From Bacteriovorax stolpii (lineage in GTDB: Bacteria; Bdellovibrionota; UBA1018), in assembly GCA_945860415.1 (NCBI GenBank), contig CAMAQA010000002.1:10193-74192 (forward strand): 64,000 nt of DNA, read 5' to 3'. Numbering within the stretch: position 1 is the first letter of the stretch; each line of letters starts with the position of its first letter. Under the pieces are notes generated by a model. That model ran no database searches, had not been told where the DNA came from, and saw only the letters and a list, made by a program, of their open reading frames with translations. The position numbers and the translations under genes were made by a program. This document shows positions 21,215-40,504 of this stretch, piece by piece.

Positions 21215-21478
21215 TCAGATCACTTCGAAGCTGTCGGCTTTCAGGACGATCTGTGAGTTTTCATCCTCCTTCCGACCGGTGACGCTTGCATCTGCGCCGG
21301 ACTCGAACGCCTGTTCGATGGTTGATTCGAGGCTGGTGAAAAGTTTCTGTGGAATAAGCACGGAACTCGTTGATCGACCGGACTGAAGTTGAAGGAATCC
21401 GATTTTTTTACCCTTCACTGTGGTGACCACCTTAAACTCAATGACCTTGCCTGAAGACTGAGCGCTCTGTTTTTTCAT
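21215..21478 (-). CDS. small soluble protein (87 aa), translationally coupled to the CDF gene
   Basis: The ATG at 21478 overlaps the CDF stop (ATGA). The sequence MKKQSAQSSGKVIEFKVVTT… is the C-terminal part of the 313-aa track ORF. No known motif. Confidence 0.45.
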   Translation of the reverse strand: MKKQSAQSSGKVIEFKVVTTVKGKKIGFLQLQSGRSTSSVLIPQKLFTSLESTIEQAFESGADASVTGRKEDENSQIVLKADSFEVI

Positions 21479-22125
21479 TGTCCCTCGATTGTAGAAGACT
21501 CGCCTGGTCTCAGGATTTCTACTGACTCTCGGATGATCCCGAACGAGGCCTTGAGTACGAAAGTGGCCACGAGAATCGCAACCAGCACATCGGGCCACCG
21601 GGTTCCTAGGAGGGCCACGAGAGCCGAGGCAGTCAGGAGCCCGGCGTTGGAGATGAGGTCGGCCTTCGAGCAGGTCCACGTCGACTTCATGTTGATGTCG
21701 TCCGACCTGCTCTCTGAGAGAAGCCACATGCAAGTCAGATTGCCGAAGAGAGCCAGCACGCTGAAGGCGCCCATCCATCCCGAGTGAGGCAGAACCGTAG
21801 GACGTAGCAGTCCTCCGAAGCCCGAATCGAAGAGCGCCGACAGGGCCAGCAGAGCGGTCACGCCTCCCTTGGCGAGCGCTGCCCTGGCCTTCCAGTTCAT
21901 GTCCTTGTTGATCGCAATGAGGCCGAGTCCAGTCAGCAGCACATGGCTGAGCAGGTGGATCGCATCTGCGGCCAGTAGATGCGAGTGGGCTTGGGCTGCT
22001 CCCCAGAACTCGGCGATACAAACCACGGCGTTGATCGCCAGCACAGCCATCAGGGTTTTCTGATGGTGCCGTTGGGCCGATGGTTCTCCGTGCAGGAGGT
22101 TCTGGCAGGAATGACAGTCCTTCAT
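21475..22125 (-). CDS. cation diffusion facilitator (CDF) membrane domain without the usual cytoplasmic C-terminal domain
   Basis: Six-TM pattern with CDF-like TM2 (LLAADAIHLLSH) and TM5 (NMKSTWTCSKADLISNAG). ATG 22125 is preferred (MKDCHSCQ…). A GTG at 22152 would lie inside the palindrome. Confidence 0.65.
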   Translation of the reverse strand: MKDCHSCQNLLHGEPSAQRHHQKTLMAVLAINAVVCIAEFWGAAQAHSHLLAADAIHLLSHVLLTGLGLIAINKDMNWKARAALAKGGVTALLALSALFDSGFGGLLRPTVLPHSGWMGAFSVLALFGNLTCMWLLSESRSDDINMKSTWTCSKADLISNAGLLTASALVALLGTRWPDVLVAILVATFVLKASFGIIRESVEILRPGESSTIEGQ

Positions 22126-22146
22126 CTCGTCGAGAACCGTGACATA

Positions 22147-22187
22147 AGCCACCCATTAATGCAATAGCGTTGCATTAATGGGTGGCT
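22147..22187. promoter_or_regulatory. 41-bp perfect palindrome containing candidate Zur-type box A
   Basis: AGCCACCCATTAATGCAA-tagcg-TTGCATTAATGGGTGGCT: 18-nt perfect arms. It is centred in the 82-bp gap between the divergent CDF and COG0523 genes. Confidence 0.6.
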
Positions 22188-22207
22188 TGCGTTAGTCGCG
22201 GTGGTCC

Positions 22208-23419
22208 ATGAAAGATCAGTCTGCGTCAGGGCGCCCATTGCCGGTCACGGTGCTGTCGGGATTTCTCGGTGCTGGAAAAACCACCCTTCTCAATCAGGTG
22301 CTGACGAATCGAGCCGGCATGCGCGTGGCCGTCATCGTCAACGACATGAGCGAGGTCAATATCGACGCCGCCCAGATCAAGGGTGGCTCGGCCATGCTGT
22401 CGCGTCAGGAAGAGCGGCTGGTGGAAATGCAGAACGGCTGCATCTGCTGCACGCTTCGAGAAGACCTTCTGATCGAGGTTGCGAAACTCGCAGAAGAGGG
22501 ACGCTTTGACTACCTCCTGATCGAGTCAACCGGCATCTCGGAGCCTCTTCCTGTGGCCGAAACCTTTCAGTTCGCTGACCCCGCCGGCAGGGTGCTCAAT
22601 GATCTGGCCCGGCTTGACACCATGGTGACCGTCGTGGATGGGCCAAGGTTCCTCAAGGACTACAACGAGGGGGCTTTGCTCCGAGAGCGGAAACTTGCCG
22701 TGGACGAAAAGGATTCGAGAACCATTACCGACCTGTTGGTGGAGCAGGTGGAGTTCGCCAACGTGATCGTGATCAACAAGACGGATCTCATGGGCGGCAT
22801 GCGCATTCGAGAGCTCGAGGGAATTTTGAAGGCTCTCAATCCCGAAGCGACCATCCTCCGAACCAGCTTCGGGCGGATACCGTTGCCCTCCATTCTGGGT
22901 ACCGGACTTTTTGATTTTTCGCGAGCCTCGCTTGCGCCGGGTTGGATGAGGCGCATGCGGGGTGAGCCGTTGAGTGAGGCCGAGGAATACGGAATTTCGA
23001 GCTTTGTTTTTCGTGACCGCCGGCCTTTTCATCCGCAGCGTTGGGCGGATCTCTGTAGTCGGATCTGGCCGGGTGTTCTGCGCTCGAAGGGTTTCATCTA
23101 TTTGGCCTCGCGGCTGGAGCACATCGCCCTGTGGTCGCAGGCGGGCACGGTCTGGTCACTGGGGCCTGCGGGCGCCTGGAGGGCCGCCATTCCGGAAGAG
23201 GCCTGGCCGGATGACGAGTCCACGCGGGCTGCGATCAAGCGCGACTGGCACCCGATTTTCGGAGACCGCCGACAGGAACTCGTCGTGATCGGGGGGCGCG
23301 AGATGAGGCCGGAGCGGATCAGGAGCGATCTTGAACGGGCACTGCTGACGGAAGACGAGGTTGCGCTCGGCCGGTCGCGATGGAAGGGGTTTTCGGATCC
23401 TTTTCCTAAATGGATCTGA
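22208..23419 (+). CDS. COG0523-family GTPase (CobW/ZigA/YeiR-like metallochaperone), copy 1
   Basis: Walker [13 protein letters not shown], metal motif [16 protein letters not shown], and a CobW_C-like tail (RPFHPQR…RSKGF). Confidence 0.9.
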   Translation: MKDQSASGRPLPVTVLSGFLGAGKTTLLNQVLTNRAGMRVAVIVNDMSEVNIDAAQIKGGSAMLSRQEERLVEMQNGCICCTLREDLLIEVAKLAEEGRFDYLLIESTGISEPLPVAETFQFADPAGRVLNDLARLDTMVTVVDGPRFLKDYNEGALLRERKLAVDEKDSRTITDLLVEQVEFANVIVINKTDLMGGMRIRELEGILKALNPEATILRTSFGRIPLPSILGTGLFDFSRASLAPGWMRRMRGEPLSEAEEYGISSFVFRDRRPFHPQRWADLCSRIWPGVLRSKGFIYLASRLEHIALWSQAGTVWSLGPAGAWRAAIPEEAWPDDESTRAAIKRDWHPIFGDRRQELVVIGGREMRPERIRSDLERALLTEDEVALGRSRWKGFSDPFPKWI

Positions 23420-23437
23420 TTCGTTTTTAGTTGTCAT

Positions 23438-23458
23438 TATTGCATTTCAGTTGCAATA
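23438..23458. promoter_or_regulatory. candidate Zur-type box B
   Basis: tatTGCATttcagTTGCAata, 39 nt upstream of the S18 ATG. Confidence 0.5.
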
Positions 23459-23493
23459 AATGGCACCTGTTCGGACGTGATCAAAAGGAGTCA

Positions 23494-23811
23494 ATGATGG
23501 GTAGATTGAATGTGGGTTCTACAGGGGGTCGTGTGGAGCGTGGCGACTGGGAGGACAAGAGTGAGGAACGGCGTAGCGCGCCCCGCATGCGACGCTTTCG
23601 CGCGCCTCCGGATCTGATTTTCGATTACAAGGATGTCGAATCTCTCAAGCCTTTCCTGTCGGAGAGCGGAAAGATTGTTCCGGCGCGGATCAGCCGCCTG
23701 AGCGCCTCCCAACAGCGCAAGCTGACCCAGGAAGTCAAGCGGGCCCGCCAGCTGGCGTTGCTGCCCATCAGTGATCGTCACTCGGGTGGGTCCGGCGGAA
23801 GTCGCTTCTGA
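23494..23811 (+). CDS. rpsR: ribosomal protein S18, cysteine-free variant with atypical N- and C-terminal extensions
   Basis: Core [50 protein letters not shown] matches S18. RBS AAGGAG at 23485-23490. ATG at 23494 or 23497. Confidence 0.8.
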
Positions 23812-24862
23812 GATCAGCCGGGAGCTCCCAGAGTGCGAGCTCTCCGGTGTCGAATCCCACGGCGATCGAGTTTCCAGAGGGATGCCAGGCCATGCATGTG
23901 GCCTGGCTCTCTGCTGCCGAAGTGCCGATGACCATGGGTCGAAGCGCGATGGAGTCCAGGCTCCAGAGCATCCAGCAGCCGTCCGTGCCGATAGTGGCAA
24001 ACTGTCGTGGTGATGCTGGTCTGAACCCGATGTCGACAATGGTCCCGATATGGCCGCCAATCACACGCGGCTGCTGGCCGGCGGGGGTCGCTCGGGTGAA
24101 GTCCCATGACGTGATGGCTTCGCCTCCAGCGGCCAGAAGCTGCGAGCCATCCGGGCTCCACCGCAGCGCTCTGACCTGCCCAGGAAATCCCGACATTCGG
24201 AAGTCATTTCCGGACGAGGTTCGCCAGACGTGCAGCGTCTGGTCTCGGCACCCCGAGGCAATCCACCGTCCGTCTGGACTTACCGACAGTTGAAGCGGAC
24301 TGCCATTCCAGTTGAAGGTTCTCGCGGGCCGCGACGAACCTTGTTTCCAGATCTGAAGTTCAAGGTGAGAAACCGAGATAAAGCTGTCCTGTATGTCACG
24401 CCACTGCAGATCGCAGATGGCGGCGCGCGCGCCCTCGAAGCGACTGACTTCGGTGCCTTCGAGTGAACACCAGGTGATGATCCTGCCGGCTGCGGAAAGA
24501 AACCCACTGCCATCATGCGCCGGGCGGAGCAGCTCCGCGGCGGCCAGGCCCGAAAGCGATGAGCACCACTGAAGGCGGATTTCTCCATCTTCGATGCGCC
24601 AGCAGCGGAGTTCTCCCTTTTTGCTTCCGCGTCCGGATGAAATCACCAGCCCATCACATCCCAGCCATCGGACATCGGTCAGTTCAGTCGCATGCGCAAT
24701 CGTACGCGTGAGCGTCGCGCCGCCATTGAGGTGGACGATTCCGATTCCTCCGGCTGTTTCTCCGATCAGTAGATGGGTGCCGTCCTCACTCCAGTGCAGA
24801 TGGCGAATATAGTCTCCATACTCGATGGAACGGAGTGGATCGATCAAGCGGAGGTCAGACAT
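23768..24862 (-). CDS. WD40-repeat beta-propeller protein, cytoplasmic
   Basis: Repeats such as [20 protein letters not shown] and [13 protein letters not shown]. No signal peptide. The start overlaps the upstream COG0523 stop by 19 nt. Confidence 0.8.
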
Positions 24863-26217
24863 GCACGAAAGCCCTCGTTCAATTCGGCTCGATCCAGGTT
24901 TCTTCCGATGAATACCAGTTGATTGGTCCTCTCTTCGTGATCAAGCCAATCGACCTCCGGGAGACTCTCCACGATCATGTGTACTCCATGAAACACGACT
25001 TTAGAGCTGGATCCGCCCTCGGTGGGTTCTACGTTTAGAACCCCCTTCATTCGGAAGAGATCGGCTCCCCGACTTCTAACCAGATTCGAGATCCAGAAGT
25101 TGAAGATGGGTCTCGAGACGATTCCGGATACCGCGATTCCAACGGACGATACGGTGCTGTCGTGCTCATGGCCCGGGTTGAACTCATGAGAGTCCTCGGG
25201 CTCAAGAGTCGTCCCGGAAGATGTATGAAGCTGCATTTGAAACTCGGACGGATGATGTTGCAGGAAGAGCGTGTATCTGCCGTCTGCAGGAATCTCGAGG
25301 AGGAACTCCTTGGGGCCATTCTTGGAGAGCTCGAGGCTGAAGTGGCAGGGTGACGGAATCAGGGTGGACCCAGGCGCCATGGCGATGGGCTCGTCGGAGA
25401 ATAAGATCATGGCCCGCTCGCGCAGTTTGAGTACCTCGCTGTTCGTCAGCTCGGTCTGGGCGAGAATCGCGATCGATAGCGCCGGGTCTGGCCCCTCTTC
25501 AAGACGAAGAGCATGCACGCCAGCGGGCAGCGCGTAAGATCCGGACCACTCAAACGGATACTCCGGATCGAGGAATGCGGGACGAGTTCGAAGCGCTCGT
25601 TGAAGGTCGAATCCGCCCACGTCGATGACGTTTTGGATCGGGATATTGCATTGAGTGGTTCGCAGGATCCGGGCTGCGCCATTGATCGCCCGTATCCGGC
25701 CTTCGAGCGCAGGAAGGTCGGACTCCGCTACCAGATCCACTTTGTTCAGCAGGATGAGGTCGGCGAAGGCGATCTGTTCCTGGCACTCGTCTGAATCCTC
25801 GATATGCAGTGACAGATGTCTCGAGTCCACGACGGTGACCACGCCGTCGACCTGGTAGGTGGCTTTCATCTCATCGTCGGCCAGGAAGGTCTGAACGACC
25901 GGAGCTGGATCGGCAAGCCCGGTGGTCTCGATGATGATTCGGTCGAATTTGTCCCGCCTCTGAAGGAGGCGTCCCAGGATGCGAATCAGGTCGCCGCGAA
26001 CGGTGCAGCAGATGCATCCGTTGTTCATTTCATGGATCTCTTCCTCGGATGACAGGATTAGTCCGCTGTCGATGCCGATCTCTCCGAACTCGTTTTCGAT
26101 GATGGCGATTCTTTGACCGTGATGCTCGGCGAGGATTCTGTTGAGCAGGGTGGTCTTTCCGGACCCCAGAAACCCGGTCAAGATGGTCAATGGAATTCGA
26201 CTCGTATTTTCACTCAT
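24844..26217 (-). CDS. COG0523-family GTPase, copy 2, with a large insertion between the G-domain and CobW_C
   Basis: GFLGSGKTTLLN, GCICCTVRGDL and NKVDL motifs. About 130 extra residues (…EWSGSYALPAGVHALRLEEGPD… HEFNPGHEHDS) precede the CobW_C-like end. Confidence 0.85.
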   Translation of the reverse strand: MSENTSRIPLTILTGFLGSGKTTLLNRILAEHHGQRIAIIENEFGEIGIDSGLILSSEEEIHEMNNGCICCTVRGDLIRILGRLLQRRDKFDRIIIETTGLADPAPVVQTFLADDEMKATYQVDGVVTVVDSRHLSLHIEDSDECQEQIAFADLILLNKVDLVAESDLPALEGRIRAINGAARILRTTQCNIPIQNVIDVGGFDLQRALRTRPAFLDPEYPFEWSGSYALPAGVHALRLEEGPDPALSIAILAQTELTNSEVLKLRERAMILFSDEPIAMAPGSTLIPSPCHFSLELSKNGPKEFLLEIPADGRYTLFLQHHPSEFQMQLHTSSGTTLEPEDSHEFNPGHEHDSTVSSVGIAVSGIVSRPIFNFWISNLVRSRGADLFRMKGVLNVEPTEGGSSSKVVFHGVHMIVESLPEVDWLDHEERTNQLVFIGRNLDRAELNEGFRACLTSA

Positions 26218-26235
26218 GGTTTGGCTCTCCGTGGA

Positions 26236-27528
26236 TCAGGTGGAATTAAAACGGTGAAATGGCATCGGTAGACGGGGTTGCAGGATACTTCGGGTATCAG
26301 GCTCCGAAAGCGAGAGCAGTCTGGGTTTCGGGCCAAGGACCAGCGCGCGCCGGACTCGGGAAGGAATGGCCTCCGGATCGTGGGTGCACCACACGACGGA
26401 GAGGGCGCGAGACGCCTGGGTGGCCTCGAGTCGACGCACAAGCAGTCCGGCCGTCTCGGCATCGAGGCCTGAAGTCAGTTCATCGCAGAGAAGAATCTCG
26501 GGGCCTGCCGCGATTGCAGAAATCAGCATGGCCTGCTTCTGCTGACCGAAACTGAGTCCTGACAGGGGCTGATGCATTTCAGCTTGGAGCTCAAACGATT
26601 CAAACAGGTTCTCCAGCTCGCCTTCGCTGATTCGAGATCCAATTCGGGCATCCTCCCAGGGAGTGGCGCCGAGAAGGAAGTGTTCGGGATTCTGAAAAGT
26701 CATCATGATCCCGCGAATGCAGCCGCGGAGAGATTCAGTGCCCAGTCGCTTCAGGGTTCCCGAGCTCGGAGGCCGAAGTCCGGCCATCACTCGAAGAAGT
26801 GTGGTTTTCCCAGATCCGCTTGGCCCGAGAAGGGCGAGCCATTCGCCCTGTTGGAGCTCAAGATGGATCTCCGAAAATACTTCCTTTCCGAGAATCTCCA
26901 CGGCGATCCGATCCAGCTCCATCACCAGATCGGGTCTCGATCTGAACTCCATCGGATTCGTCGGGCCGGTCGTACGAAGAGCGCGAGACTCTCTGGCCGT
27001 TTCCGCCCGTCGAAGGCCATAGTCCAGAGTGGAGGCAAGAAGAAGCGAAGTGCACGCATGGGGCGCAGAACTCGGCGCACGAAGCCGAATCGCCGAGAGC
27101 CGGGAGGGGAATGCCTCAACCATGATGGCGCTTCCGGTACAGATGTCCTGAATCAGTTCGTGAAGCCAGGGAGCACTCGACACCCTCCTGACCAGGCGCT
27201 CGGCTCCATCCCGGGTGATGATTCCGGAGATCGCACCCATGAACCCTAATCCGGCGAGCCAGCGATACAGTGTGCCTGGGGCGATCCCTCTGCCGCTGAG
27301 CCAGCTGCCGAGCCAGCTGATCATCGCAATGCCGAACGAAAGTGCTAGAAACAGGTAAGGGGTGCTCGAGTGGCGCTTCGCGGAGCTCGACCCATGACGA
27401 TACGTCCAGGAGGCAGCGAAGAGAAGAAGCGCGATCAGCGGCACGAAGGGGGTGATGTCGTCCGCCGAGAGCGCGGCCAACAGGAGAATACCCGAGGCCG
27501 CGGCAGTGAGAATCATGCCTCGGATCAT
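26236..27528 (-). CDS. fused ECF transporter T-component-like membrane domain plus A-component ATPase (CbiQ/CbiO-like)
   Basis: An N-terminal region of about 190 aa is hydrophobic. It is followed by Walker A GPSGSGKTT, signature LSFGQQKQ and Walker B ILLCDE. The ATG at 27528 overlaps the upstream ORF stop (ATGA). Confidence 0.7.
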   Translation of the reverse strand: MIRGMILTAAASGILLLAALSADDITPFVPLIALLLFAASWTYRHGSSSAKRHSSTPYLFLALSFGIAMISWLGSWLSGRGIAPGTLYRWLAGLGFMGAISGIITRDGAERLVRRVSSAPWLHELIQDICTGSAIMVEAFPSRLSAIRLRAPSSAPHACTSLLLASTLDYGLRRAETARESRALRTTGPTNPMEFRSRPDLVMELDRIAVEILGKEVFSEIHLELQQGEWLALLGPSGSGKTTLLRVMAGLRPPSSGTLKRLGTESLRGCIRGIMMTFQNPEHFLLGATPWEDARIGSRISEGELENLFESFELQAEMHQPLSGLSFGQQKQAMLISAIAAGPEILLCDELTSGLDAETAGLLVRRLEATQASRALSVVWCTHDPEAIPSRVRRALVLGPKPRLLSLSEPDTRSILQPRLPMPFHRFNST

Positions 27529-27695
27529 GGGACGCGTGCGCCCCGTGACATCAGGCGTGACCACCCCGCACCCATCAGAACGCCACAGAGCAACAGGAGC
27601 AGTCCGAAAACAAATGGCGACTCATCGCTCGGAGCGGCCGTTCCGCCCACGATCTCGGGTAGTATTCCGGCGAGTCGGGCGTGATGGTCGAACAC
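27525..27695 (-). CDS. small membrane protein, CbiN-like C-terminal half
   Basis: …APSDESPFVFGLLLLLCGVLMGAGW resembles the PSGE-plus-TM end of CbiN. A GTG at 27695 lies 4 nt after the cbiM stop. The stop overlaps the next ATG. Confidence 0.4.
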   Translation of the reverse strand: MFDHHARLAGILPEIVGGTAAPSDESPFVFGLLLLLCGVLMGAGWSRLMSRGARVP

Positions 27696-27699
27696 CGCC

Positions 27700-28263
27700 T
27701 CATCCAGGCCCGTGTAGCTGAGTGACAGCCGGGGTGTCTGGCGAGGAGGATTGAAATGCGATGGCGAGAACTGCAGCATCTGCGACGTAGACAGCCATGC
27801 TGGAAACTGCCAATGCGGTAGCGATCCCCCAGAGAGTCCTTCGACCGGGTCGAAGGAAAGTGGCGACAGTGCGGCTCAGGAAAAAGGCGAGCCCCGGACC
27901 GATCACTCCAAGCGTGAGGATATTTGCCCCCAGGCTGGTCAGCCCGCCGTGCCCCATTCCCACTGCCTGAATGGCAAGGATCAATGCGACGGGCAGGATG
28001 ACGTGCAGGGGGCCCACCAGAAGGGCAAGTAAACCCGTCATGCACAGGTGCGAACTGATTCCGAAGAGCGGCATAGGAATCGGAAGCACCGTGCAGGCGA
28101 AGACCAGTGCCGATCCTACCGTGAGAAGGTTTCTGAACGAAGGATCGCCGGTCGTCGTCAGGGTGTGCTTCATCCGGATCGAGCCCAGGAGAACGGCGGG
28201 TGCCGCCAGCGAGGTCAGCGCCAGGGCATGTGCGGCAGGCAGGATTCCCTCGGAAATGTGCAT
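27700..28263 (-). CDS. cbiM: ECF transporter substrate-capture component, CbiM/NikM family
   Basis: Hallmark N-terminus MHISEGIL and a conserved internal His (GISSHLCMTG). Polytopic. Short for the family at 187 aa. Confidence 0.8.
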   Translation of the reverse strand: MHISEGILPAAHALALTSLAAPAVLLGSIRMKHTLTTTGDPSFRNLLTVGSALVFACTVLPIPMPLFGISSHLCMTGLLALLVGPLHVILPVALILAIQAVGMGHGGLTSLGANILTLGVIGPGLAFFLSRTVATFLRPGRRTLWGIATALAVSSMAVYVADAAVLAIAFQSSSPDTPAVTQLHGPG

Positions 28264-28281
28264 CCGATCACCGCTCTCTTC

Positions 28282-28452: not shown

Positions 28453-28470
28453 GGTCGGTACCCCTTTTCT

Positions 28471-28491: not shown

Positions 28492-28513
28492 TTAGGGCTC
28501 CATATTCAAAACG

Positions 28514-32640: not shown

Positions 32641-33844
32641 TTGTCGGTTCTCCGGTGTGGTGCCCTACGGAATGCAGGGACTTGAAATGGGGTTTTCGGG
32701 TGCGCCGCTTTTCAGAGCGCTCCCACTCTTTTTCGCGTTCTTCGCGGAAAGGATCGCGAAAGCGGCTCCAGTCGAGGTGCATCTCGAAGTCGCTGAGCAG
32801 GCACCGGTCGAGCTCACGAAAAAACGCTTCCGATCGCATCCGCCTCGACACATGAGAATCCCAAGCGAAAGCCAGCTCAGTCATCCGATCTCCGGTTTCA
32901 GGATTCCAGTGTTCGAAGGCCTCGGGGTGATCCTCACGAGCCTGGCGAAGCTCGTCGGCGGGAAGCGTTGCCAGCCAGTATCCATCTCCCGAGCAGTCAA
33001 AGAGCCGAGGGCCTGCCTGCGTGATGGTAAAAGCGACATCGGTCTCCGAGGCGATCCAGGCGGTGCCTTCGCTGCGCAGCAGCTCCTCGGGCCAGCGGCG
33101 CACGAGCTGATAGAACCGTTCGGGGTGAAAGGGACGATTCCTGCGAAAGACCTGCCCGGGCTGGGCGTGCTTCGAGAACTGAAGCCCGAGCCGCCAGACC
33201 GCTCCGTTGGCTGTTCGCTCTGCTGAAAATTCGCGGGAGATCAGCTGGCGGGCCCATTCCGAAGTGATGTCAGACCGCTCCAGAATTTCGGCGCGAGTAT
33301 TCAAGCTCCTCAGGAATTCGGCTGAGGCATGCTTCTCGTGTTCCGTACCCGAAAGGACGAGAGCATCCGAGAAGTCGATCTGGTCGGCGATGGCTTCGAC
33401 CAAGGGTACCTGGCGGTCAAGTCCGATTCGTCGGGTCGAGACCCAGTCGAGAAGAAGCTTGTCAGTGCCAATGGCTGAGACGAACGATCGAATTCGGAAT
33501 CCAGCCTGGTGAAGCGGTTGATCCGCGCCAAAGGCGTCGACAATGGCCCACGGGTCGGCGTCGATCGGGGTCACGAGCCAGATTGCGCTCTCGAGCGGGC
33601 TACTCTGAGCCATCGGAAGCAGCCGGTCTTCGATCGCTTGCCGAACAGAACAGGACGAGCAATCGGAAGTCTCTTTCGAGGGGGTCGTGACTAAGGCGCC
33701 ACCGGAAAGAGTGGCCAGCAGTCGTGCGAGCGAATTGCCTTCTCGTACACGGACACTTTGAACGACGACGACCGAACGCTCGGAGGGAGCAGTGCGCCGC
33801 GATTTCGCAGCCAGGCGTTCGGCAAGTGAGATGATCTCAGCCAT
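32612..33844 (-). CDS. COG0523 paralog with degenerate GTPase motifs (copy 4)
   Basis: The C-terminal half aligns by eye to copy 3 ([11 protein letters not shown]…, [10 protein letters not shown]…DPF). Walker A is replaced by [15 protein letters not shown] by CSSCS, and NKTD by LSGTE. Confidence 0.7.
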
Positions 33845-35075
33845 GGGTCACCGATTCTCCATCTGCCGTCGTGGGGTTCTGCCAGGACGGAAACGGATCG
33901 TTTGCTTTCAGCCATTGCTCCTTGCCGAGGGCGAGCTCCGAGTCGCTGAGCAGGCAGGAGTCGAGCTTGCTCCTGAGCTCGTCATGATGGCGAGAGCCTT
34001 CGAGCGTGATGATCACGAGCTCCTGCTGGCGATCGCCGAACTGCTCATCCCAGATCGACTGGATGCGAGTCAGTTCTTCTTCGTCCATGTCCCAGTCCTC
34101 GGGAGGCTGGGCGGCGTACCACTCTCCGCCGCTCTCGACCGAACTGACGAGTCCGGCCTGCGACCAGACGCCCACTTCCGAAGGACGCGTGGCGATCCAG
34201 AAAAAGCCCTTCGAGCGAATCACGCTCTTCCAGCCTTCCTGAAAGAGCTGAAACAGGCGCTCTGGGTGAAAGGGCCGCTTGGCCCGATAAACAAAGCTCG
34301 AGATACCGTACTCTTCGGTCTCGGGCTTTTCTTCTCCGCGAAGAATCTTCAGCCATCCCGCCGATTCGGAGGCTTTTTCGAAGTTGAACAGCCCGGTCTT
34401 CAGCACCGTTGCGGGCGCCACCTGACCGTAGCGGCTCTCGATGAGGCGGGCTCCGGGGTTCAGCTTCTTGAGCACTCCCTTGAGGGTGTCCAGCTCGGCA
34501 GCTGAAACCAGATCGGTCTTGTTGAGCACGAGGATATCTGCAAACTCGACCTGTTCCACCAGCAGGTCGGTGATCGTGCGCTCGTCTTCGTCTCCTGCCT
34601 CGAGTCCGCGGGCCCTGAGCTCGTCGGACTGCTGGTAGTCATTCAGGAAGTTGAGCGCGTCGATGACGGTCACCATCGTGTCGAGGCGGGCCAGCTGCGA
34701 GAGCGACACCCCGTTCTCATCCTCGAAGGTGAAGGTTTCAGCCACGGGCAGCGGCTCGGAGATTCCGGTCGATTCAATCAGCAGGGCATCGAATCTCCCC
34801 TCGCGAGCCAGTCGAGCCACCTCGACGAGCAGGTCTTCGCGAAGCGTGCAGCAGATGCAGCCGTTCTGCATTTCGACGAGCTTCTCTTCAGTGCGGCTCA
34901 GGGAGGCTTCGCCACCCTTGACCAGGGCTGCGTCGATGTTCACCGAGCTCATGTCATTGACGATCACCGCCACGCGCATGCCGTCGCGATTTCGAAGCAC
35001 ATGGTTCAGGAGCGTGGTCTTTCCGGCTCCGAGGAATCCGGAAAGAACCGTGACGGGAAGCTGCGAGGACTGCAT
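33837..35075 (-). CDS. COG0523-family GTPase, copy 3
   Basis: [28 protein letters not shown] and a CobW_C-like tail. Confidence 0.9.
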
Positions 35076-35101: not shown

Positions 35102-35389
35102 TTAGTTTTTTCGGCCCTTCGCGACCAGTCGTGCCTTGATGGTGCGGAGACGATCCGAGAGGTTCGCATCCTTGGCAAGCTTGATGGCCCGGCTGATTCC
35201 TCCCTGCTTGTCGATCGTGCGGATGGCACGAGTCGACAGGCGAAGTGACAGGATCTGGCCGAGCTCCGGAATGGAGTAGCGCTTGCTGACGATGTTGGGC
35301 AGCCAGCGCGTGCGGGTCTTGATGTTCGAGTAGCTGACGAGGTTGCCGGTCGTCGGGCCCTTGCCGGTGAGTTCGCAGAACTTAGACAT
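35102..35389 (-). CDS. rpmB: ribosomal protein L28 (no CxxC pair)
   Basis: [33 protein letters not shown] matches the L28 N-terminus. The start is set at ATG 35389. Confidence 0.85.
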
Positions 35390-35708
35390 AAACTTCTCCG
35401 CTTTTCTTGGCGATTCGCACTTTCTTGCCGTCAAGGATCTTCGTGCCGAGCCGAGTGGGCTTGCCGGTTTTCGGGTCTACTGCCATGACATTCGAAATGT
35501 GAATGGGCGCCTCCTTGGCCACAATTCCGCCCTGGGGGTTGGCCTGCGAGGCGCGGACGTGTCGTTTGACCTGGTTCAGACCTTCCAGAATCACCGACTC
35601 TCGCTTGAGCTGCATGGCGATGATGCGAGCCTGCTTGCCTTTTTCTTTTCCGGAGATGACTTCGACCAGGTCGCCTTTGCGGAGCAAACTTCTGATTTGC
35701 GTTTTCAT
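35382..35708 (-). CDS. rplX: ribosomal protein L24
   Basis: [19 protein letters not shown] (KOW motif), …[15 protein letters not shown]… and DGKKVR align to bacterial L24. The start is set at ATG 35708. Confidence 0.85.
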
Positions 35709-35718: not shown

Positions 35719-35961
35719 TTACTTCGTGTACTTCTTGCGGAAGCGTTCAATGCGGCCCTGAGTGTCGAGCAGCTTTTCCTTTCCGGTGAAGAAGGGGTGC
35801 GACGCGCTCGAGATTTCAACCTTCACGACGGGATACTCCTTGCCGTCCTCCCAGATCATGGTTTCCTTGGGCTGGGCGGTCGAACGGGTCAGGAAGGCAA
35901 AATCGGACGATACGTCCTTATAGATGACTTCGCGGTATTCGGGGTGGGTGGCCTGCTTCAT
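35719..35961 (-). CDS. rpmE2: ribosomal protein L31 type B (non-zinc form)
   Basis: [12 protein letters not shown]…[14 protein letters not shown]…RFRKKY is the type B signature. No Cys. Confidence 0.9.
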
Positions 35962-35975
35962 GGTGTTCTCCGGTC

Positions 35976-35996
35976 ATTTGCAATTTTGTTGCGTGT
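35976..35996. promoter_or_regulatory. candidate Zur-type box E1
   Basis: attTGCAAttttgTTGCGtgt, 18 nt upstream of the rpmE2 ATG. Confidence 0.5.
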
Positions 35997-35998
35997 AG

Positions 35999-36019
35999 TA
36001 GTGCAACTCTGATGCATTT
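35999..36019. promoter_or_regulatory. candidate Zur-type box E2
   Basis: tagTGCAActctgATGCAttt. Its centre is 23 bp from that of E1, and it lies 69 nt upstream of the Fur-family gene. Confidence 0.45.
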
Positions 36020-36084
36020 GTCAAATTCTTCCGGCATGTGACGGCCCCGTTCCCTCCCGAGGGCATCTGCTGTAGGGTCATTCC

Positions 36085-36582
36085 ATGAGCAAGGAAGGAC
36101 AGTCTCGCGGGGTGCGCCGTGTGCAAGTTCGCAAGAATACAGGGACAGTTCATGGTCGGCATGAGGCCGAGCTCTCATCGGCCCTTGAGGCCATCGAGCG
36201 AGCGGGCATGCGCCGTACCCAGCCTCGAATCGCGATCTTGAAGGCATTGATTGCCGAGCACGGACCTTTCAGTGTCGACGAGCTTCGTGAGTTCTCTCTT
36301 CTTGATGGAGTCGATCGGGTGACCGTTTACCGAGTCTTGACGGCATTTGAAGAGCTGGGCCTGGTGCGCCGGTGTGAGTTCGGCGACGGCACCTCGCGCT
36401 ACGAGTTCGCGGGTGGTGGCCACCACCACCATCACGTCATCTGCAAAAAATGCCGCAAAACGGAAAACGTCGACGAGTGCATTCCTGACGCGATCATCCA
36501 GCGCGTTCGCAAGCTGGGCTACGACGACGTCTCGCACACCCTCGAGTTTTTCGGGGTGTGCAAGACCTGTCGTGCGGCTTGA
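36085..36582 (+). CDS. zur: Fur-family metalloregulator, probably Zur
   Basis: Winged-helix motifs RRTQPRIAILKAL and RVTVYRVL, a His-run (HHHHH), and two CxxC pairs (CKKC, CKTC). The Zur assignment comes from context only. Confidence 0.75.
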   Translation: MSKEGQSRGVRRVQVRKNTGTVHGRHEAELSSALEAIERAGMRRTQPRIAILKALIAEHGPFSVDELREFSLLDGVDRVTVYRVLTAFEELGLVRRCEFGDGTSRYEFAGGGHHHHHVICKKCRKTENVDECIPDAIIQRVRKLGYDDVSHTLEFFGVCKTCRAA

Positions 36583-36630: not shown

Positions 36631-36660
36631 TCTCAATCGGCAATATGTTGCCGATTGAGA
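36631..36660. repeat. 30-bp inverted repeat (13-nt perfect arms, 4-nt spacer)
   Basis: TCTCAATCGGCAA-tatg-TTGCCGATTGAGA. A weaker CGGCA-n6-TGCCG sits at 36607-36622. Either a zur terminator hairpin or an operator. Confidence 0.5.
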
Positions 36661-36682: not shown

Positions 36683-37816
36683 ATGAAGCGTTATGAGCGC
36701 AGGCTCGATCTCAAAAAGCTCCTCGCCAAGAACTCCTTGTTCCTTTTTGGCCCTAGGGGGGTTGGAAAGAGCTTTCTGATTCGTGAGACGCTTCTTGGAC
36801 TCAAGACCTACAATCTTCTGGATGATGAGGTTTTCGACAAGCTGATGCGTCGTCCGAAAGCTATCGAGGAGGAGCTGGCATCTGGCACTCGTACTGTGGT
36901 CATCGACGAGATCCAGAAGCTTCCCAAGCTTCTGGATGAAGTGCATCGACTCATCGAGGAGCGAGGAATTCGATTTCTCCTCACCGGAAGTTCGGCGCGC
37001 AAGCTGAGGCGAGGGGGGGCTAATCTCCTTGCTGGCAGAGCGTGGGAGAGCCATCTCTATCCATTGATTCGAAACGAGATCGATCAGTTCAGCCTAGATC
37101 GCTATTTGAACGTGGGGGGGTTGCCTCGGGTCTACCTTTCTGACGAACCACGCGAGGAACTCAAAGCATACGTTCGCACCTACCTGATGGAGGAAATCAA
37201 GGCCGAGGCGCTCGTTCGTTCTTATGAGCGGTTTGTTCGCTTTTTCGAGGCCATCGCCCAGTCGAATGGAAAAGAGATCAACTATCAGAACCTATCGAAG
37301 GATTCGGGGGTTCCAGTGCGGACCATTGAAGGCTACATCGAGGTGCTTCGGGATACATTGGTCGGTTTTGAGCTCCTGCCCTTCACCAAAACGGTGACTC
37401 GGAAAGCTGTGAGCCGCTCGAAGTTTTACCTCTTTGATGTGGGGGTGGCGAATTACCTCAAGGGCCTTGAGAAAATCGTTCCTGCAAGCAGTGACTTCGG
37501 CGATGCGTTCGAGCACTTCATCATTACCGAGGTCCGGGCCTACAGCTCTTATTCGAGACGAGACCTGAAGTTACAGTACTGGCGCTCGAAGGATCGTGAA
37601 GTGGACCTGATCTTTGGTTCTTCAGCGATCGAAATCAAGAGCACGGAGCGGATACGTGACGAGGACTTCAAGGGGCTCAAGGCCCTGCGCCAGGAGAAGC
37701 TCCTCAAAAACTATTTTCTCGTGAGCCGCAGCAAAAACGAGGGAGTGACCGACAATATCCGTTATCTTCACTACGAGACCTTCCTCGCCGAGCTCTGGGC
37801 GGGAAAGGTCTCGTAG
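36683..37816 (+). CDS. AAA+ ATPase (AAA_14 plus DUF4143 architecture)
   Basis: Walker A GPRGVGKSF and Walker B VVIDEIQK. The C-terminal DUF4143-like region is assigned from memory of the family. Confidence 0.75.
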   Translation: MKRYERRLDLKKLLAKNSLFLFGPRGVGKSFLIRETLLGLKTYNLLDDEVFDKLMRRPKAIEEELASGTRTVVIDEIQKLPKLLDEVHRLIEERGIRFLLTGSSARKLRRGGANLLAGRAWESHLYPLIRNEIDQFSLDRYLNVGGLPRVYLSDEPREELKAYVRTYLMEEIKAEALVRSYERFVRFFEAIAQSNGKEINYQNLSKDSGVPVRTIEGYIEVLRDTLVGFELLPFTKTVTRKAVSRSKFYLFDVGVANYLKGLEKIVPASSDFGDAFEHFIITEVRAYSSYSRRDLKLQYWRSKDREVDLIFGSSAIEIKSTERIRDEDFKGLKALRQEKLLKNYFLVSRSKNEGVTDNIRYLHYETFLAELWAGKVS

Positions 37817-37863: not shown

Positions 37864-39837
37864 TCAGAGCCGGGCCTGAACTCCGACGATGAAGTTCCTG
37901 CCCGGAAGCGGTGCCACGTCCTTCACGAACGAGACATGGTTTCGCGCTTCGACGTTGAATGCGTTGTTGAGGCGTGCCGTCAATCTCAGGGCTCCAAATC
38001 CGGTGGTTACCGGCATCTCGGCTCCGACGTTCAGCATCGTGTAGGCAGGCGTCTTCTGCTCGTTGGTCGCGAGCTGGGTCTGGGCCTCGGAGCGCTGGAT
38101 TTCGATGTCCGCTGCGATCGAGTTGCTGCGATAATTCAGCCCCACCGTTTCACGCACCGGAGTCACGCGTGGCAGGAACGTCTTATCGGAGCGGTTGAAG
38201 CCGCGCACCAGGTCGAGGCGCGTTTCGAGTTCCCAGATGCCGTTCCAGAGATTCCAGGGAAGCTGCTCGCGAAGCTCGAACTCGGCGCCATAGAGGGCGG
38301 CTGAGATTGGGCGGAACTCGTATTCCGCGAAGCCACTGTCGCCGTCGGTCTGGCCATTCGGAATGAGACCAATGAACCGGGTGAAGTTCTGCGCGAAGAG
38401 CGTCGCACGACCTTCGCTCTTGCCGACCTGCCTTCGAAGCGAGAACTCTACTGAGCGGCCGATCTCACGCTTCAGATCGGCATTGCCGATTTCGTACGTG
38501 CTGGTGGCCATATGCGCACCGAGCGCGAAGAGCTCCTGGTAATTCGGGGCACGCTCGGTGAACGAGGTGTTCAGTCCCAGGCTGTAGACCTCATTCAGGC
38601 GATACAGCGTTCCGAGCGACAGGCTGGGCGTGATGAAGCTTCGCGCAGCCGCAGCTCCGAATGCGGCCCCGCCCTGTGAATTCACGCGCGAGTATTCGCC
38701 TCGGAGTCCGAAGTTGTGGGTCCAGCTGCCGATCGGCAGTTCTTCGAAGGCGAACAGCGCGCCCTGGACATTTTCGGTCGTCGGAAGAAAAGCTTCTTCT
38801 CCTGAAGCACTCAGCCGAAACGCCAGCGTTTGCAGGCCGACGATGCCTTGGACGGCACCCCAGGGACGATGGCGAAGATCTGCGCGGATTTCTCCGCCCG
38901 AGTTGCGAAAAACCGTTCCTTCTTCGGCACCCCCGCCGCCCCCGTCGTCGTGGCCTTCTTCGGTGTGCTTGTAATACGAGAGGGCGCCGGCGACCCGCCC
39001 CGACTCCACCCAGCCGCCGGTCTTGAATTCACCCGAAAAGTCGATGCGCTGGCGATTGAGTTCAATGACGACGTCTTCCTCTTTCACGACTCCGTAGTGT
39101 GTTCCGAAGCTCGAGAACGAGGTGCCCCAGTAGCCGTTCTCGGTGATCCGACTGATACCCAGCGCACCCTCGAGGGTTTCGGCTTCGCTGTTGGTGACCG
39201 TGCGGACCGGGGTGCGGTAGTCTTCCGAAGCGCGCAGGATGCCGTCGAAATGGTATGCCCATTCGCCGACGCTGTGGTTGACGAGAAGCCCGAGGGTGCG
39301 GCCCGAATCAACCGTGGAGTAACGCGAGTCGAACTTGATCTTCGAGTCGTACTGAAGGCGGGTCGGAATCCGCGAGCTGACCGTATTGACCACGCCACCG
39401 ATGGCGCTCGATCCGTAAAGAAGGGCTCCTGAGCCGCGAATGACCTCGACACGGTCGACCAGAAGCGGGTCTCCGGCCACGGCATGATCGGCGCTGGTGC
39501 CGGAGGCATCGAGCGTGCCGAGGCCGCCCTGGAGCACGCGAATGCGGTCGCCATCGAGCGCACGAATGATCGGTCGGCTCGAGCCGGGCCCGAACTGAGT
39601 CGAAGTCACGCCGGTTTCGCGAGAGAGCGTCTCGCCCAGGGTCTGAGCGCGCTTTTTGTCGAGCTTGCGTCCGGAAAGCTCGCTGATGGTCGGCACAAAG
39701 TCTTGAACGGATTTCTTCTCAGTGCCGGAGATTCCGAGCACGGTGATCTCGGGAATCTCGAGCTCATCGGGTTCTGCGGCAACCAGCAGCGAGCTGGCGA
39801 GAAGGGTCGGGGCCATCAGGGCAAGTGTCTTTTTCAT
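37864..39837 (-). CDS. TonB-dependent receptor 2 (ZnuD-like candidate)
   Basis: Signal peptide from ATG 39837, a plug domain and a beta-barrel ending …FIVGVQARL. Contains a His/Asp/Gly-rich segment, HTEEGHDDGGGGGAEEG. Confidence 0.85.
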   Translation of the reverse strand: MKKTLALMAPTLLASSLLVAAEPDELEIPEITVLGISGTEKKSVQDFVPTISELSGRKLDKKRAQTLGETLSRETGVTSTQFGPGSSRPIIRALDGDRIRVLQGGLGTLDASGTSADHAVAGDPLLVDRVEVIRGSGALLYGSSAIGGVVNTVSSRIPTRLQYDSKIKFDSRYSTVDSGRTLGLLVNHSVGEWAYHFDGILRASEDYRTPVRTVTNSEAETLEGALGISRITENGYWGTSFSSFGTHYGVVKEEDVVIELNRQRIDFSGEFKTGGWVESGRVAGALSYYKHTEEGHDDGGGGGAEEGTVFRNSGGEIRADLRHRPWGAVQGIVGLQTLAFRLSASGEEAFLPTTENVQGALFAFEELPIGSWTHNFGLRGEYSRVNSQGGAAFGAAAARSFITPSLSLGTLYRLNEVYSLGLNTSFTERAPNYQELFALGAHMATSTYEIGNADLKREIGRSVEFSLRRQVGKSEGRATLFAQNFTRFIGLIPNGQTDGDSGFAEYEFRPISAALYGAEFELREQLPWNLWNGIWELETRLDLVRGFNRSDKTFLPRVTPVRETVGLNYRSNSIAADIEIQRSEAQTQLATNEQKTPAYTMLNVGAEMPVTTGFGALRLTARLNNAFNVEARNHVSFVKDVAPLPGRNFIVGVQARL

Positions 39838-39866
39838 GGAGAGGAAAGCTATCGAGGAGGTTTCTT

Positions 39867-39887
39867 TAATGCAACTATTTTGCACTG
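39867..39887. promoter_or_regulatory. candidate Zur-type box F
   Basis: taaTGCAActattTTGCActg, 33 nt upstream of the TBDR-2 ATG, in the divergent gap. Confidence 0.5.
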
Positions 39888-40024
39888 AGGGATTCGACCG
39901 GAAGACGGAGGATCATCAGGTGACCAAATCTTGGACACTGCCCAGGCGGCTCTTCGGGCGATTTTCCTGTCCTTTTCCGGGTGGCACCGGCGGTGCAACT
40001 CCGAGGGGCGAAGGAATCAACCCG

Positions 40025-40504
40025 ATGTTCATTCGCTCACGTTTTGTCCTAGTTCTTGTCCTGCTCCTGTCTGTTAGCGGAGCTCGTGCTGCGGATTCTG
40101 ATTCCGTTGCGCTCGAAATGACCGGATTTCGAATGGAACAGGACGGGCTTCACGCCACGACCTGGAGCTTTCGTGATCAGCTCAAGCTGATCATCTCCAA
40201 GAAGCGTTTCATGACCGAGAAGGCAGCCCAGGAATTCTGCAAATCCTATCGAAGCACGCTCGATACCGAATTCAGCGCCCTGCTGATTGCGATGTCAGGC
40301 GCCTCCAGCCAGAGCAAGGTTTTGCATGAATCCATTTCTTGGAAGATCCAGGATCGTTCCGGAATCTGGCAATGGGTGGGAAAAGATCGGCAGATCCTGG
40401 TCCTGACCGATGGCGAAGGGATGCGTGAAGAAGTGATCAGCGAGAAGCAGCTGACGAAACTCGCCCCTGAGGGCGTTCCCGCTATTTGCGTCTCTCAGAG
40501 CTGA
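40025..40504 (+). CDS. secreted hypothetical protein (159 aa)
   Basis: ATG 40025 gives the signal peptide MFIRSRFVLVLVLLLSVSGARA. An in-frame ATG at 39869 with a strong AGGAGG is an alternative start. Confidence 0.5.
   Translation: MFIRSRFVLVLVLLLSVSGARAADSDSVALEMTGFRMEQDGLHATTWSFRDQLKLIISKKRFMTEKAAQEFCKSYRSTLDTEFSALLIAMSGASSQSKVLHESISWKIQDRSGIWQWVGKDRQILVLTDGEGMREEVISEKQLTKLAPEGVPAICVSQS

Follow-up and report, generated by a model that had tools for sequence, protein, structure and literature searches.

A block of about 19 kb (21215–40504) in a 64,000-nt stretch of Bacteriovorax stolpii contig CAMAQA010000002.1 (assembly GCA_945860415.1; metagenome contig, ENA ERZ27280289), the whole of which is called the window here, is proposed to be a Zur-type zinc-starvation regulon cluster of uncultured Bdellovibrionota, accreted from several independently conserved units headed by predicted Zur boxes. 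We place the probability of this reading at about 0.85. The block encodes a Fur-family regulator, three intact COG0523 GTPases and one P-loop-less relative, six cysteine-free (C−) ribosomal-protein paralogs, two TonB-dependent receptors, a CbiM/CbiQ-CbiO-type transporter, and a cation diffusion facilitator (CDF) protein without a C-terminal domain. A first-pass annotation of this DNA had already suggested a zinc-starvation regulon, and that suggestion now has the support of a repeated palindrome that matches a predicted ZUR box, of the conservation of these boxes, of the gene content (ZigA, bL31B, and a ZnuD-like receptor), and of the nearest solved relative of the regulator, the Zur protein of Mycobacterium tuberculosis. 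We infer zinc as the signal, repression as the mode of control, the replacement of ribosomal proteins, and the nature of the transported metal.

The palindrome has the consensus TTAATGCAAC-N3-GTTGCATTAA. Repeat finding and a pattern search place seven copies of it in the block, with cores starting at 22160, 23441, 28474, 29345, 35979, 36002, and 39870. When at most one mismatch to the 15-nt core TGCAAYNNNRTTGCA is allowed, there are six matches in the 64 kb against 0.29 expected, and none of 100 shuffles reaches six. A position weight matrix (PWM) built from the seven sites scores all of them at 20.6 bits or more and the next best position in the window at 7.5 bits; since the matrix was trained on the same sites, the informative part is the gap between these scores. 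No further copy was found outside the island in the 64-kb window by the PWM scan. Intergenic DNA amounts to 828 nt, or 4.3% of the block, and all seven palindromes fall in it, 18–41 nt 5′ of the first gene of a unit, so that their placement in promoter-proximal gaps, as first described, holds. The gap at 32365–32415, which the first-pass annotation had named together with box-bearing gaps, contains no palindrome by either the pattern or the PWM scan. The box-headed units begin with COG0523 no. 1 (its box is common to the divergent CDF gene), bS18, bL33, a 194-aa open reading frame (ORF), bL31B, and TonB-dependent receptor 2. The boxes are as follows.

Box 1, 22146–22188, core 22160–22174: in the 55 nt that separate the divergent CDF and COG0523 no. 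1 genes; no mismatches to the core.
Box 2, 23437–23459, core 23441–23455: 39 nt 5′ of the bS18 ATG.
Box 3, 28470–28492, core 28474–28488: 22 nt 5′ of the bL33 ATG, heading the bL33-CbiM-CbiQ/O-COG0523-WD40 unit.
Box 4, 29341–29363, core 29345–29359: 23 nt 5′ of the 194-aa ORF; no mismatches.
Boxes 5 and 6, 35975–36020, cores 35979–35993 and 36002–36016: in tandem in the divergent gap between bL31B and the regulator gene.
Box 7, 39866–39888, core 39870–39884: 33 nt 5′ of the ATG of TonB-dependent receptor 2.

Box 1 sits inside a perfect 19+5+19 palindrome (AAGCCACCCATTAATGCAA TAGCG TTGCATTAATGGGTGGCTT) that is 100% complementary and far longer than the other boxes; at 22146–22188, it extends over the GTG with which the CDF ORF starts.

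The same palindrome is known from elsewhere. Rodionov et al. (2004) predicted a 17-bp palindrome, ATGCAACnnnGTTGCAT, as the ZUR site 5′ of znuABC-zur in two Desulfovibrio genomes (PMC545781), and the consensus of the island palindrome equals that box. This match links the motif to zinc uptake in a way that does not depend on the gene content of the island. Upstream of bL31B, the minus strand reads TTGACA-AATGCATCAGAGTTGCACTA-...-CGCAACAAAATTGCAAAT, followed by a ribosome-binding site and the ATG. A scan for the sigma-70 consensus gave no promoter at the stringency used, and statements about promoters therefore rest on this TTGACA hexamer, which was spotted by eye and is kept in relatives.

The relatives used are two Bdellovibrionota metagenome-assembled genomes (MAGs), L002 (an uncultured Bacteriovorax sp.) and L003 (a Bdellovibrionia bacterium), to whose proteins those of the island are 81–95% identical, and other contigs, labelled L016 to L106. 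TTGACA and two boxes precede bL31B in L002, L016/L018, and L106 as well. In L016/L018, the chromosomal neighbourhood is different and the uL24 paralog of the island (alt-uL24) is 75% identical to that of the window; in L106, it is 67% identical. L002 also keeps a box, at 5265, 5′ of the ortholog of the ZnuD-like receptor. Boxes of the same class are found 5′ of CbiM, bL33, and a ZigA-like gene in L021 (48% GC) and 5′ of a homolog of orf75, a small island gene, in L023, the GC content of L021 and L023 being 48–50%; in L021 and its counterpart L022, the box equivalent to box 3 sits about 50 nt 5′ of CbiM. The match of the palindrome to the ZUR box, together with its conservation at the corresponding promoters of four cassette-bearing relatives, makes the Zur reading well supported in silico. 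The comparison across genomes that the first-pass annotation recommended thus shows modules and boxes recurring in relatives. It also removes the claim of unusual density, as an island of about 11 kb in the unrelated L021 is comparably dense, with Zur, bL33, bL28, uS14, a box, CbiMN, CbiQ/O, COG0523, WD40, CDF, a second Fur-family gene, and a ZigA-like gene.

The gene map of the block is laid out below. Every element named by the first-pass annotation was found where that annotation had placed it. The Fur-family assignment at 36085–36582 is borne out by a PF01475 match, the two TonB-dependent receptors by plug and barrel domains in both 29751–31928 and 37864–39837, and the truncation of the CDF by a TIGR01297 match (65.8 bits, cutoff 82.35) that covers profile positions 2–198 of 285, that is, the transmembrane domain without the C-terminal cytoplasmic domain. 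The number of minus-strand ORFs from 35961 down to 23768 is 17 and not the 19 first given. Many adjacent genes overlap by 4–29 nt, which fits translational coupling, and a terminator scan gave nothing above chance within the minus-strand block, which permits long transcripts. The flanking genes are Lon (18663–21206) and rpoZ (40593–40835).

21215–21478, minus: 87-aa ORF; 4-nt overlap with the CDF gene; no Pfam or NCBIfam match; GC 49% against about 60% in the adjoining genes.
21475–22152, minus: CDF-family transporter, transmembrane domain only; TIGR01297; His/Cys-rich N-terminus.
22208–23419, plus: COG0523 no. 1, ZigA-like; cobW (182 bits) and CobW_C.
23494–23811, plus: bS18 paralog, C−; PF01084, 74.7 bits; no Cys.
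23768–24862, minus: WD40 beta-propeller, cytoplasmic; PF00400 and many beta-propeller models; 19-nt overlap with COG0523 no. 2.
24844–26217, minus: COG0523 no. 2, 457 aa with an insert, YjiA/CobW-like; cobW (204 bits) and CobW_C.
26236–27528, minus: fusion of a CbiQ-like membrane domain and a CbiO-type ABC ATPase; ABC_tran, 79 bits, residues 231–364.
27525–27779, minus: CbiN-like C-terminal piece, in another frame than CbiM; YTGLDEAV...GAGWSRL.
27700–28263, minus: CbiM-type S component, truncated, N-terminus MHISEG; PF01891, 105.7 bits.
28282–28452, minus: bL33 paralog, C−; PF00471; one Cys, no CxxC.
28514–28741, minus: orf75, 75 aa; a small family without a Pfam entry.
28738–29322, minus: 194-aa ORF of uncertain reality; no family matches.
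29377–29754, minus: orf125, 125 aa, with one CxxC (RCQGCH); 4-nt overlap with TonB-dependent receptor 1.
29751–31928, minus: TonB-dependent receptor 1, generic; plug 59.7 bits and barrel 50.5 bits.
31933–32364, minus: orf143, 143 aa, secreted (signal peptide), with HGTHFH near the C-terminus; no family matches.
32416–32640, minus: bL32 paralog, C−; PF01783; no Cys; final gene of the conserved cassette.
32612–33844, minus: pseudo-COG0523; CobW_C alone, 34.6 bits.
33837–35075, minus: ZigA-type COG0523; NCBIfam ZigA equivalog, 618.3 bits; cobW and CobW_C.
35102–35389, minus: bL28 paralog, C−; PF00830, 78 bits; one Cys, no CxxC.
35382–35708, minus: uL24 paralog, C−; PF17136, 104 bits.
35719–35961, minus: type B bL31, C−, which opens the cassette; 129 bits against the NCBIfam type B L31 model (cutoff 86).
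36085–36582, plus: Fur-family regulator, a probable Zur; PF01475, 78.1 bits, residues 40–155.
36683–37816, plus: AAA_14/DUF4143 ATPase, from its domain content.
37864–39837, minus: TonB-dependent receptor 2, ZnuD-like; plug and barrel; best NCBIfam family ZnuD.
40025–40504, plus: 159-aa secreted ORF, divergent from TonB-dependent receptor 2 and a possible member.

The six ribosomal-protein paralogs, bL31B, uL24, bL28, bL32, bL33, and bS18, have 0–1 Cys each, and no CxxC occurs in any of the six, in line with their first description as lacking zinc ribbons. Eight ribosomal-protein families bind zinc in the Thermus thermophilus ribosome (PMC10450194). All six paralog families are among these eight, for which we calculate a chance of about 1e-6 for six random ribosomal proteins. 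Boxes sit 5′ of bL31B, which heads uL24, bL28, and bL32, and 5′ of bL33 and bS18. No second, zinc-binding (C+) primary copy of these proteins lies within the window. The C− paralogs would replace the zinc-binding primary copies in the ribosome.

Four of the six belong to a conserved cassette, module A, with the order bL31B-uL24-bL28-ZigA-pseudoCOG0523-bL32. Module A is intact in L002 and in L016–L018; up to the limit of the respective contig, L003 has its distal genes and L106 its proximal genes. The bL32 gene is retained in the cassettes of L002, L003, L016, and L105. L105 carries a variant, bL31-uL24-bL28-X-bL32, in which a single P-loop-less COG0523 replaces the pair of ZigA and pseudo-COG0523; this protein (3427–4299 of L105) has 290 aa and a His/Cys-rich N-terminus, DSHTHSDHDCCSSGACGSE. 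In L003 (2401–5247), bL32 directly abuts Lon. It follows that the window has about 11 kb (21215–32415) absent at that junction in a close relative, which we read as extra Zur-type genes inserted at the Lon junction in the window relative to L003.

The uL24 paralog deserves separate treatment. The uL24 of T. thermophilus binds zinc (PMC10450194); where that protein has CPAC...CAKC, the window uL24 has DPKT...AKKS. Many natural uL24 proteins retain the four Cys, as was found with the paralog as probe after its four Cys had been restored. In three relatives, the alt-uL24 of the same cassette keeps the first Cys alone (CPKT), which points to an origin by decay from a C+ ancestor. The alt-uL24 clade comprises six to seven clusters among 5.8 billion proteins and occurs always in a bL31-uL24-bL28 cassette. 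Outside its own clade, it is closest to the primary uL24 of Bacillales (62–68% identity), and the B. subtilis protein is the top PDB match; this likeness makes a horizontal origin, instead of a local duplication, a possibility. Bdellovibrio has no entry in the supplement of PMC10450194, and no paper that places a C− uL24 paralog in a Zur-type operon came up in a literature search. That uL24 joins the ribosomal proteins swapped under zinc limitation is, in our judgement, more likely than the reading given below of a COG0523 protein docked on a transporter.

The first-pass annotation listed four COG0523 genes. Three are intact, with cobW and CobW_C domains and the motifs Walker A (GxxGxGKT), GCxCC, ESTG, and NKxD; the fourth, 32612–33844, is P-loop-less and matches CobW_C only. 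The models that bear on function are the NCBIfam equivalogs for ZigA (NF038288, cutoff 600) and Mrf (NF047431, cutoff 375). Against the ZigA model, 33837–35075 passes with 618.3 bits and 22208–23419 falls just under with 586.1, while 24844–26217 scores 180.5 and 32612–33844 scores 104. The four Mrf scores are 216, 189, 68, and 29 bits, none of which reaches the cutoff, and an Mrf identity for the cassette GTPase 33837–35075 was rejected at 216 bits. COG0523 no. 2 (24844–26217) has PRK11537 as its best NCBIfam match, with YjiA/CobW models ranked over ZigA.

In the alignment, the pseudo-COG0523 has lost Walker A, ESTG, and NKxD, and its GCICC has become DCSSC, with the two outer Cys kept. Because of these losses, it is not counted as a COG0523 GTPase. 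Its orthologs in L002 and L003 are 81–87% identical, and L016 has a homolog; the identity between relatives argues that it is a maintained pseudo-GTPase and not debris. It has a conserved charged/basic/His C-terminal tail that includes HHTGEP, and the last 29 nt of its gene (32612–32640) overlap the start of the bL32 gene.

A second conserved unit, module B, consists of CbiM(N), a CbiQ/O fusion, COG0523, and WD40, optionally with a small ORF ahead of COG0523. It is found in seven organisms including that of the window, with L021 and L022 counted once. In a metagenome scan with CbiM, it turned up in L021/L022 and in L023; the contexts of CbiQ/O homologs added a JGI contig with TonB/ExbBD genes, L103, and L104; and a Planctomycetes MAG, L101, has it together with CDF, DUF1826, and a second COG0523. 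Neighbourhoods were inspected in seven other contigs, and six of these have it; the exception is L102, in which the upstream DNA is truncated and the genes downstream are unrelated. P0231 (58% identity), the closest homolog of CbiQ/O, is followed by an unannotated 432-aa ORF. In several organisms, module B adjoins Zur boxes, ZIP genes, or CDF genes. The remaining 77 CbiM loci of the scan encode ordinary proteins, mostly of 214–236 aa; none has zinc genes or stands beside island-type genes, and four of the 77 have a lone one-mismatch box match. A full-length CDF gene lies directly after the WD40 gene in L021, and a CDF gene also follows WD40 in L101.

The first-pass annotation of these genes as a CbiM/N/QO transporter of the energy-coupling factor (ECF) type stands for CbiM and for the CbiO-type ATPase, with the reservation that CbiM is truncated and frameshifted and that the CbiN-like tail is in another frame. 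The window CbiM matches positions 1–165 of 205 of the PF01891 profile and 1–169 of 224 of PRK08319, and its ORF ends at residue 187, where intact homologs have 306–339 aa with a fused CbiN-like tail. The separate CbiN-like piece aligns to the C-terminus of the 310–326-aa CbiM-N fusions of L021, L023, and L101. Coding DNA for about 70 residues, from the last helix of CbiM through the first of CbiN, is missing from the window. The window CbiM is thus probably a pseudogene or the product of an assembly error or indel. The genes for the CbiQ/O fusion, COG0523 no. 2, and WD40 are intact. The metagenome scan gave no close relative of the window CbiM, the best being 43% identical. Against the Pfam CbiQ family PF02361, the N-terminal domain of the L101 fusion scores 25.0 bits, which equals the gathering cutoff, that of L021 scores 17.3, and that of the window has no match; we assign the N-terminal membrane domain of the fusion as a predicted divergent CbiQ. 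The CbiO ATPase part scores 79.3 bits against PF00005 and, in each case under the cutoff, about 80 bits against the ECF_ATPase and cbiO models.

The GTPase of module B has a precedent in the survey of Haas et al. (2009; PMC2770081), in which COG0523 subfamily 5 clusters with WD40 genes, sometimes behind a Zur site, and in which the WD40-linked COG0523 proteins are the prokaryotic relatives of eukaryotic ZNG1. COG0523 no. 2 is 47–51% identical to the COG0523 proteins of the L021 and L023 modules. An identity of the WD40 protein as AztD was rejected: it is a classical WD40 protein without a signal peptide, and the top 60 of its 353 PDB sequence matches do not include AztD.

It is tempting, if doubtful, to propose that module B is an ECF-type importer for zinc or a zinc substitute, dedicated to zinc starvation, on which a WD40-scaffolded COG0523 protein docks and takes the incoming metal directly. 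If so, this would be the first transporter-coupled client or partner of a bacterial COG0523 protein and a new substrate class of ECF transporters. There is a second possible, likewise tentative, view, which keeps the Zur regulon and lets module B import cobalt or nickel to replace zinc in cambialistic enzymes, the linked COG0523 being a CobW-like cobalt chaperone. The N-terminus of known CbiM and NikM proteins forms a planar Co/Ni site, as the NikM2 and CbiM structures show. The S component of the island keeps the MHISEG N-terminus and SHxC motif of ordinary CbiM, and the COG0523 linked to the module scores best against YjiA/CobW models and not ZigA. However, module B adjoins ZIP, CDF, Zur-type regulators, and C− ribosomal proteins in several genomes, and no B12 genes occur among the annotated neighbours; a Rfam/ARAGORN scan of the window found no cobalamin riboswitch and nothing except three tRNA genes (Leu-tag 2402–2486, Arg-tct 3583–3659, and Lys-ctt 15356–15431). 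In addition, the CbiM proteins of the Zur-linked subgroup have diverged, with TSHICG or SSHLCM in place of the common GTCSHPCGTG motif. SHxC by itself was rejected as a determinant of metal specificity, as it is common to 70 of 76 ordinary CbiM genes, the other six being without the Cys.

The regulator, 36085–36582, has by its PF01475 match the Fur-family fold, with a winged-helix N-terminal domain and a dimerisation domain, and two CxxC pairs, CKKC and CKTC, that align to the Cys pairs of M. tuberculosis FurB and would form the structural zinc site. It carries HHHHH-x2-CxxC plus a C-terminal CxxC. Its top PDB match is M. tuberculosis FurB/Zur, 2O03 (63.6 bits), to which the HHHHH-x2-CxxC segment is common; B. 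subtilis PerR (62.5 bits) and Sc Zur (55.8 bits) follow. The NCBIfam equivalog scores are far under cutoffs, with 27.9 for Zur (cutoff 167) and 66.6 for Fur (cutoff 220). As NCBIfam gives no subfamily and the PerR score is nearly equal, the Zur call for the regulator depends for the most part on the operator and on what the regulon contains. A Fur-family gene adjoins in the window, in L002, in L023, and in L021, which has two; these lie at 649–1113 and 9365–9859, each about 39% identical to the window regulator.

Could the Fur-family protein instead sense iron, manganese, or peroxide, as Fur, Mur, or PerR do, so that the block is an iron-type or stress regulon? The Fur and PerR models of NCBIfam give scores that are below threshold but slightly higher than that of the E. 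coli Zur model, B. subtilis PerR ranks second among the PDB matches, and the block has two TonB-dependent receptors. We consider this very unlikely, since genes for siderophores, haem, ferritin, or catalase are absent from the block, whose content is the canonical Zur set, the motif is unlike Fur and PerR boxes and matches the Desulfovibrio ZUR box (ZUR_D), and the top PDB match, with its common segment, is the Zur of M. tuberculosis.

The receptors themselves are divergent. TonB-dependent receptor 1 has NCBIfam matches that are all far under cutoffs, and its plug alone resembles BtuB and siderophore receptors. TonB-dependent receptor 2 has ZnuD (NF038289) as its best NCBIfam family, with 243.1 bits; this is far under the cutoff of 950, and the receptor is therefore called ZnuD-like only. 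A His/Asp/Gly-rich loop of this receptor, HTEEGHDDGGGGG (38900–39000), is a possible metal-binding site.

A cobalt or cobalamin acquisition cluster, in which the palindrome would belong to a cobalt- or B12-responsive regulator, has the following in its favour: Pfam calls the GTPases CobW and the transporter CbiM, and the best NCBIfam matches of TonB-dependent receptor 1, over the plug only, are B12 receptors. We hold it to be highly improbable. The block has neither a cobalamin riboswitch nor a corrin-synthesis gene, one of its GTPases passes the ZigA cutoff while the CobW scores are far under theirs, six C− ribosomal proteins and a ZnuD-like receptor are out of place in a cobalt regulon, and the box equals the predicted ZUR box linked to znuABC. 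The view that the palindromes are a dispersed, non-regulatory repeat (REP- or MITE-like, or a terminator) beside zinc genes clustered by coincidence is, we hold, extremely unlikely: palindromic intergenic repeats are common in bacteria and one of the copies forms part of a perfect 43-nt hairpin, but no copy lies outside the island in 64 kb, the copies stand 5′ and not 3′ of genes and are without T-tracts, and their position relative to TTGACA and the start codon is kept in genomes of 48–59% GC with differing flanks.

Several observations weigh against the zinc-starvation regulon as proposed, as follows. CbiM is broken in the window, by a frameshift and the loss of about 70 residues. Hidden Markov models do not place the regulator in Zur as against Fur/PerR, with B. 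subtilis PerR scoring nearly as high as M. tuberculosis Zur. A CDF protein, normally an exporter, is counter-intuitive under a starvation operator. The cassette-bearing relative L105 has no recognisable box of this class upstream. Finally, the orf143-TonB-dependent receptor 1-orf125 unit has no box of its own by pattern and PWM scan and no counterpart beside the cassette in relatives, so that its membership is a matter of position only. It may be read through from bL32, as no terminator above chance was found.

Other genes are of less certain standing. The HGTHFH at the end of orf143, 5′ of TonB-dependent receptor 1, is a possible metal-binding site; a single-sequence AlphaFold model of orf143 has a pLDDT of 37 and is unusable. 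For the 194-aa minus-strand ORF at 28738–29322, the source annotation has a 116-aa ORF on the plus strand, and GC by codon position did not separate the two. The orf75 family comprises 240 representative clusters at E ≤ 1e-3, of about 70–80 aa and without a Pfam family, and its alignment shows invariant W13, C16, C21, R33, and G53. The L023 homolog (8338–8559) is 51% identical and has its own box directly upstream; orf75 stands 3′ of a Zur box in both cases examined; in the window, it comes second in the unit that box 4 heads.

The AAA_14/DUF4143 gene is not clearly in the regulon and is preceded by a conserved element that travels with it. The DNA directly 5′ of the gene contains a perfect 13+4+13 palindrome (TCTCAATCGGCAA/TTGCCGATTGAGA) at 36631–36660, and the motif TTGCCGATTGAGACAAT recurs as a direct repeat 5′ of the orthologous gene in L002 (12570–12625). 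A gene with these domains also adjoins the cassette in L016, and its position differs each time.

To return to the zinc-starvation regulon, the mechanism that we propose is the following. With zinc bound, the Fur-family repressor encoded at 36085–36582 would occupy the 23-bp palindromes, which overlap or directly follow the promoters, and would shut off at least six transcription units and probably its own gene too. When zinc drops, the repressor would leave the DNA and four responses would set in. The six cysteine-free ribosomal proteins would replace the zinc-binding primary copies, which would free ribosomal zinc and make assembly of zinc-free ribosomes possible. The ZigA-type COG0523 GTPases, one of them paired with its GTPase-dead relative in the ribosomal-protein operon, would hand scarce zinc to priority clients. 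The ZnuD-like receptor, and perhaps the second TonB-dependent receptor, would bring zinc through the outer membrane. Lastly, the CbiM(N)-CbiQ/CbiO importer, translationally linked to COG0523 and WD40, would move metal across the inner membrane to the chaperone; with its S component, CbiM, disrupted, the importer may no longer function in the present genome.

Zur regulons, C− paralogs, COG0523 chaperones, and ZnuD-like receptors are textbook, and the island as such is not new. The view of the first-pass annotation that the arrangement is undescribed has to be narrowed, as clustering of COG0523, WD40, and Zur sites is in Haas et al. (2009; PMC2770081); it stands for three features for which we found no describing paper, namely the uL24 paralog, the pseudo-COG0523 partner, and the Zur-linked CbiM(N)-CbiQ/O-COG0523-WD40 module. 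A C− uL24 in a Zur-box operon, kept in at least six lineages, would add an exit-tunnel protein to the zinc-swapped set and would imply a zinc-rich ribosome of the Thermus kind in these mesophilic bacteria. The clients of COG0523 chaperones are, to our knowledge, largely unknown, and a GTPase-dead COG0523 that is always paired with the ribosomal cassette could be an adaptor or client-recognition subunit for them. Module B, which extends from Bdellovibrionota to Planctomycetes, offers a concrete hypothesis for the role of the WD40-linked COG0523 proteins and prompts one to ask whether zinc can be a substrate of ECF transporters.

Among known systems, the ZUR_D regulon of Desulfovibrio (PMC545781) has the same operator consensus, and in both cases a Fur-family regulator is encoded beside the targets. 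There, the box controls only the ZnuABC transporter, whereas the island has no ZnuABC in the block and comprises at least six units and about 25 genes. The Zur-repressed rpmB2-rpmG1-rpsN2-rpsR2 operon of mycobacteria, with the COG0523 protein Mrf, likewise combines C− paralogs and COG0523 in one Zur-controlled operon, and bL28, bL33, and bS18 are common to it and the island (PMC5912738). In contrast to it, the island cassette lacks uS14 and includes bL31B, uL24, and bL32; the accompanying GTPase agrees with ZigA and not with Mrf, and a GTPase-dead partner is added. With respect to the C+/C− dichotomy of uL24 (PMC10450194), the island paralog is the C− form of a T. thermophilus zinc-binder; the papers found treat uL24 as a marker of thermal adaptation, whereas the island uL24 lies in a Zur-type operon. 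COG0523 subfamily 5 (PMC2770081) shares with the island a COG0523 gene translationally coupled to WD40. The main text of Haas et al. has no occurrence of CbiM and no ECF-type transporter; in the island, the pair is the distal half of a four- or five-gene module.

Module B resembles the group-I ECF importers CbiMNQO and NikMNQO in its S component with MHxxEG, its CbiN-like two-helix tail, its predicted CbiQ-like T domain, and its CbiO ATPase. It differs from them in that M-N and Q-O are fused, in its zinc context, where theirs is B12, urease, or hydrogenase, and in that COG0523 and WD40 always follow. The Zur regulons of Bacillus subtilis, Acinetobacter baumannii, and Neisseria include L31*/S14* paralogs, ZagA/ZigA, and ZnuD. 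The logic is the same as in the island: mobilisation of ribosomal zinc, a COG0523 chaperone, and a TonB-dependent zinc receptor. Those regulons, however, are scattered on the chromosome and use ZnuABC for inner-membrane uptake, whereas the units of the island are clustered.

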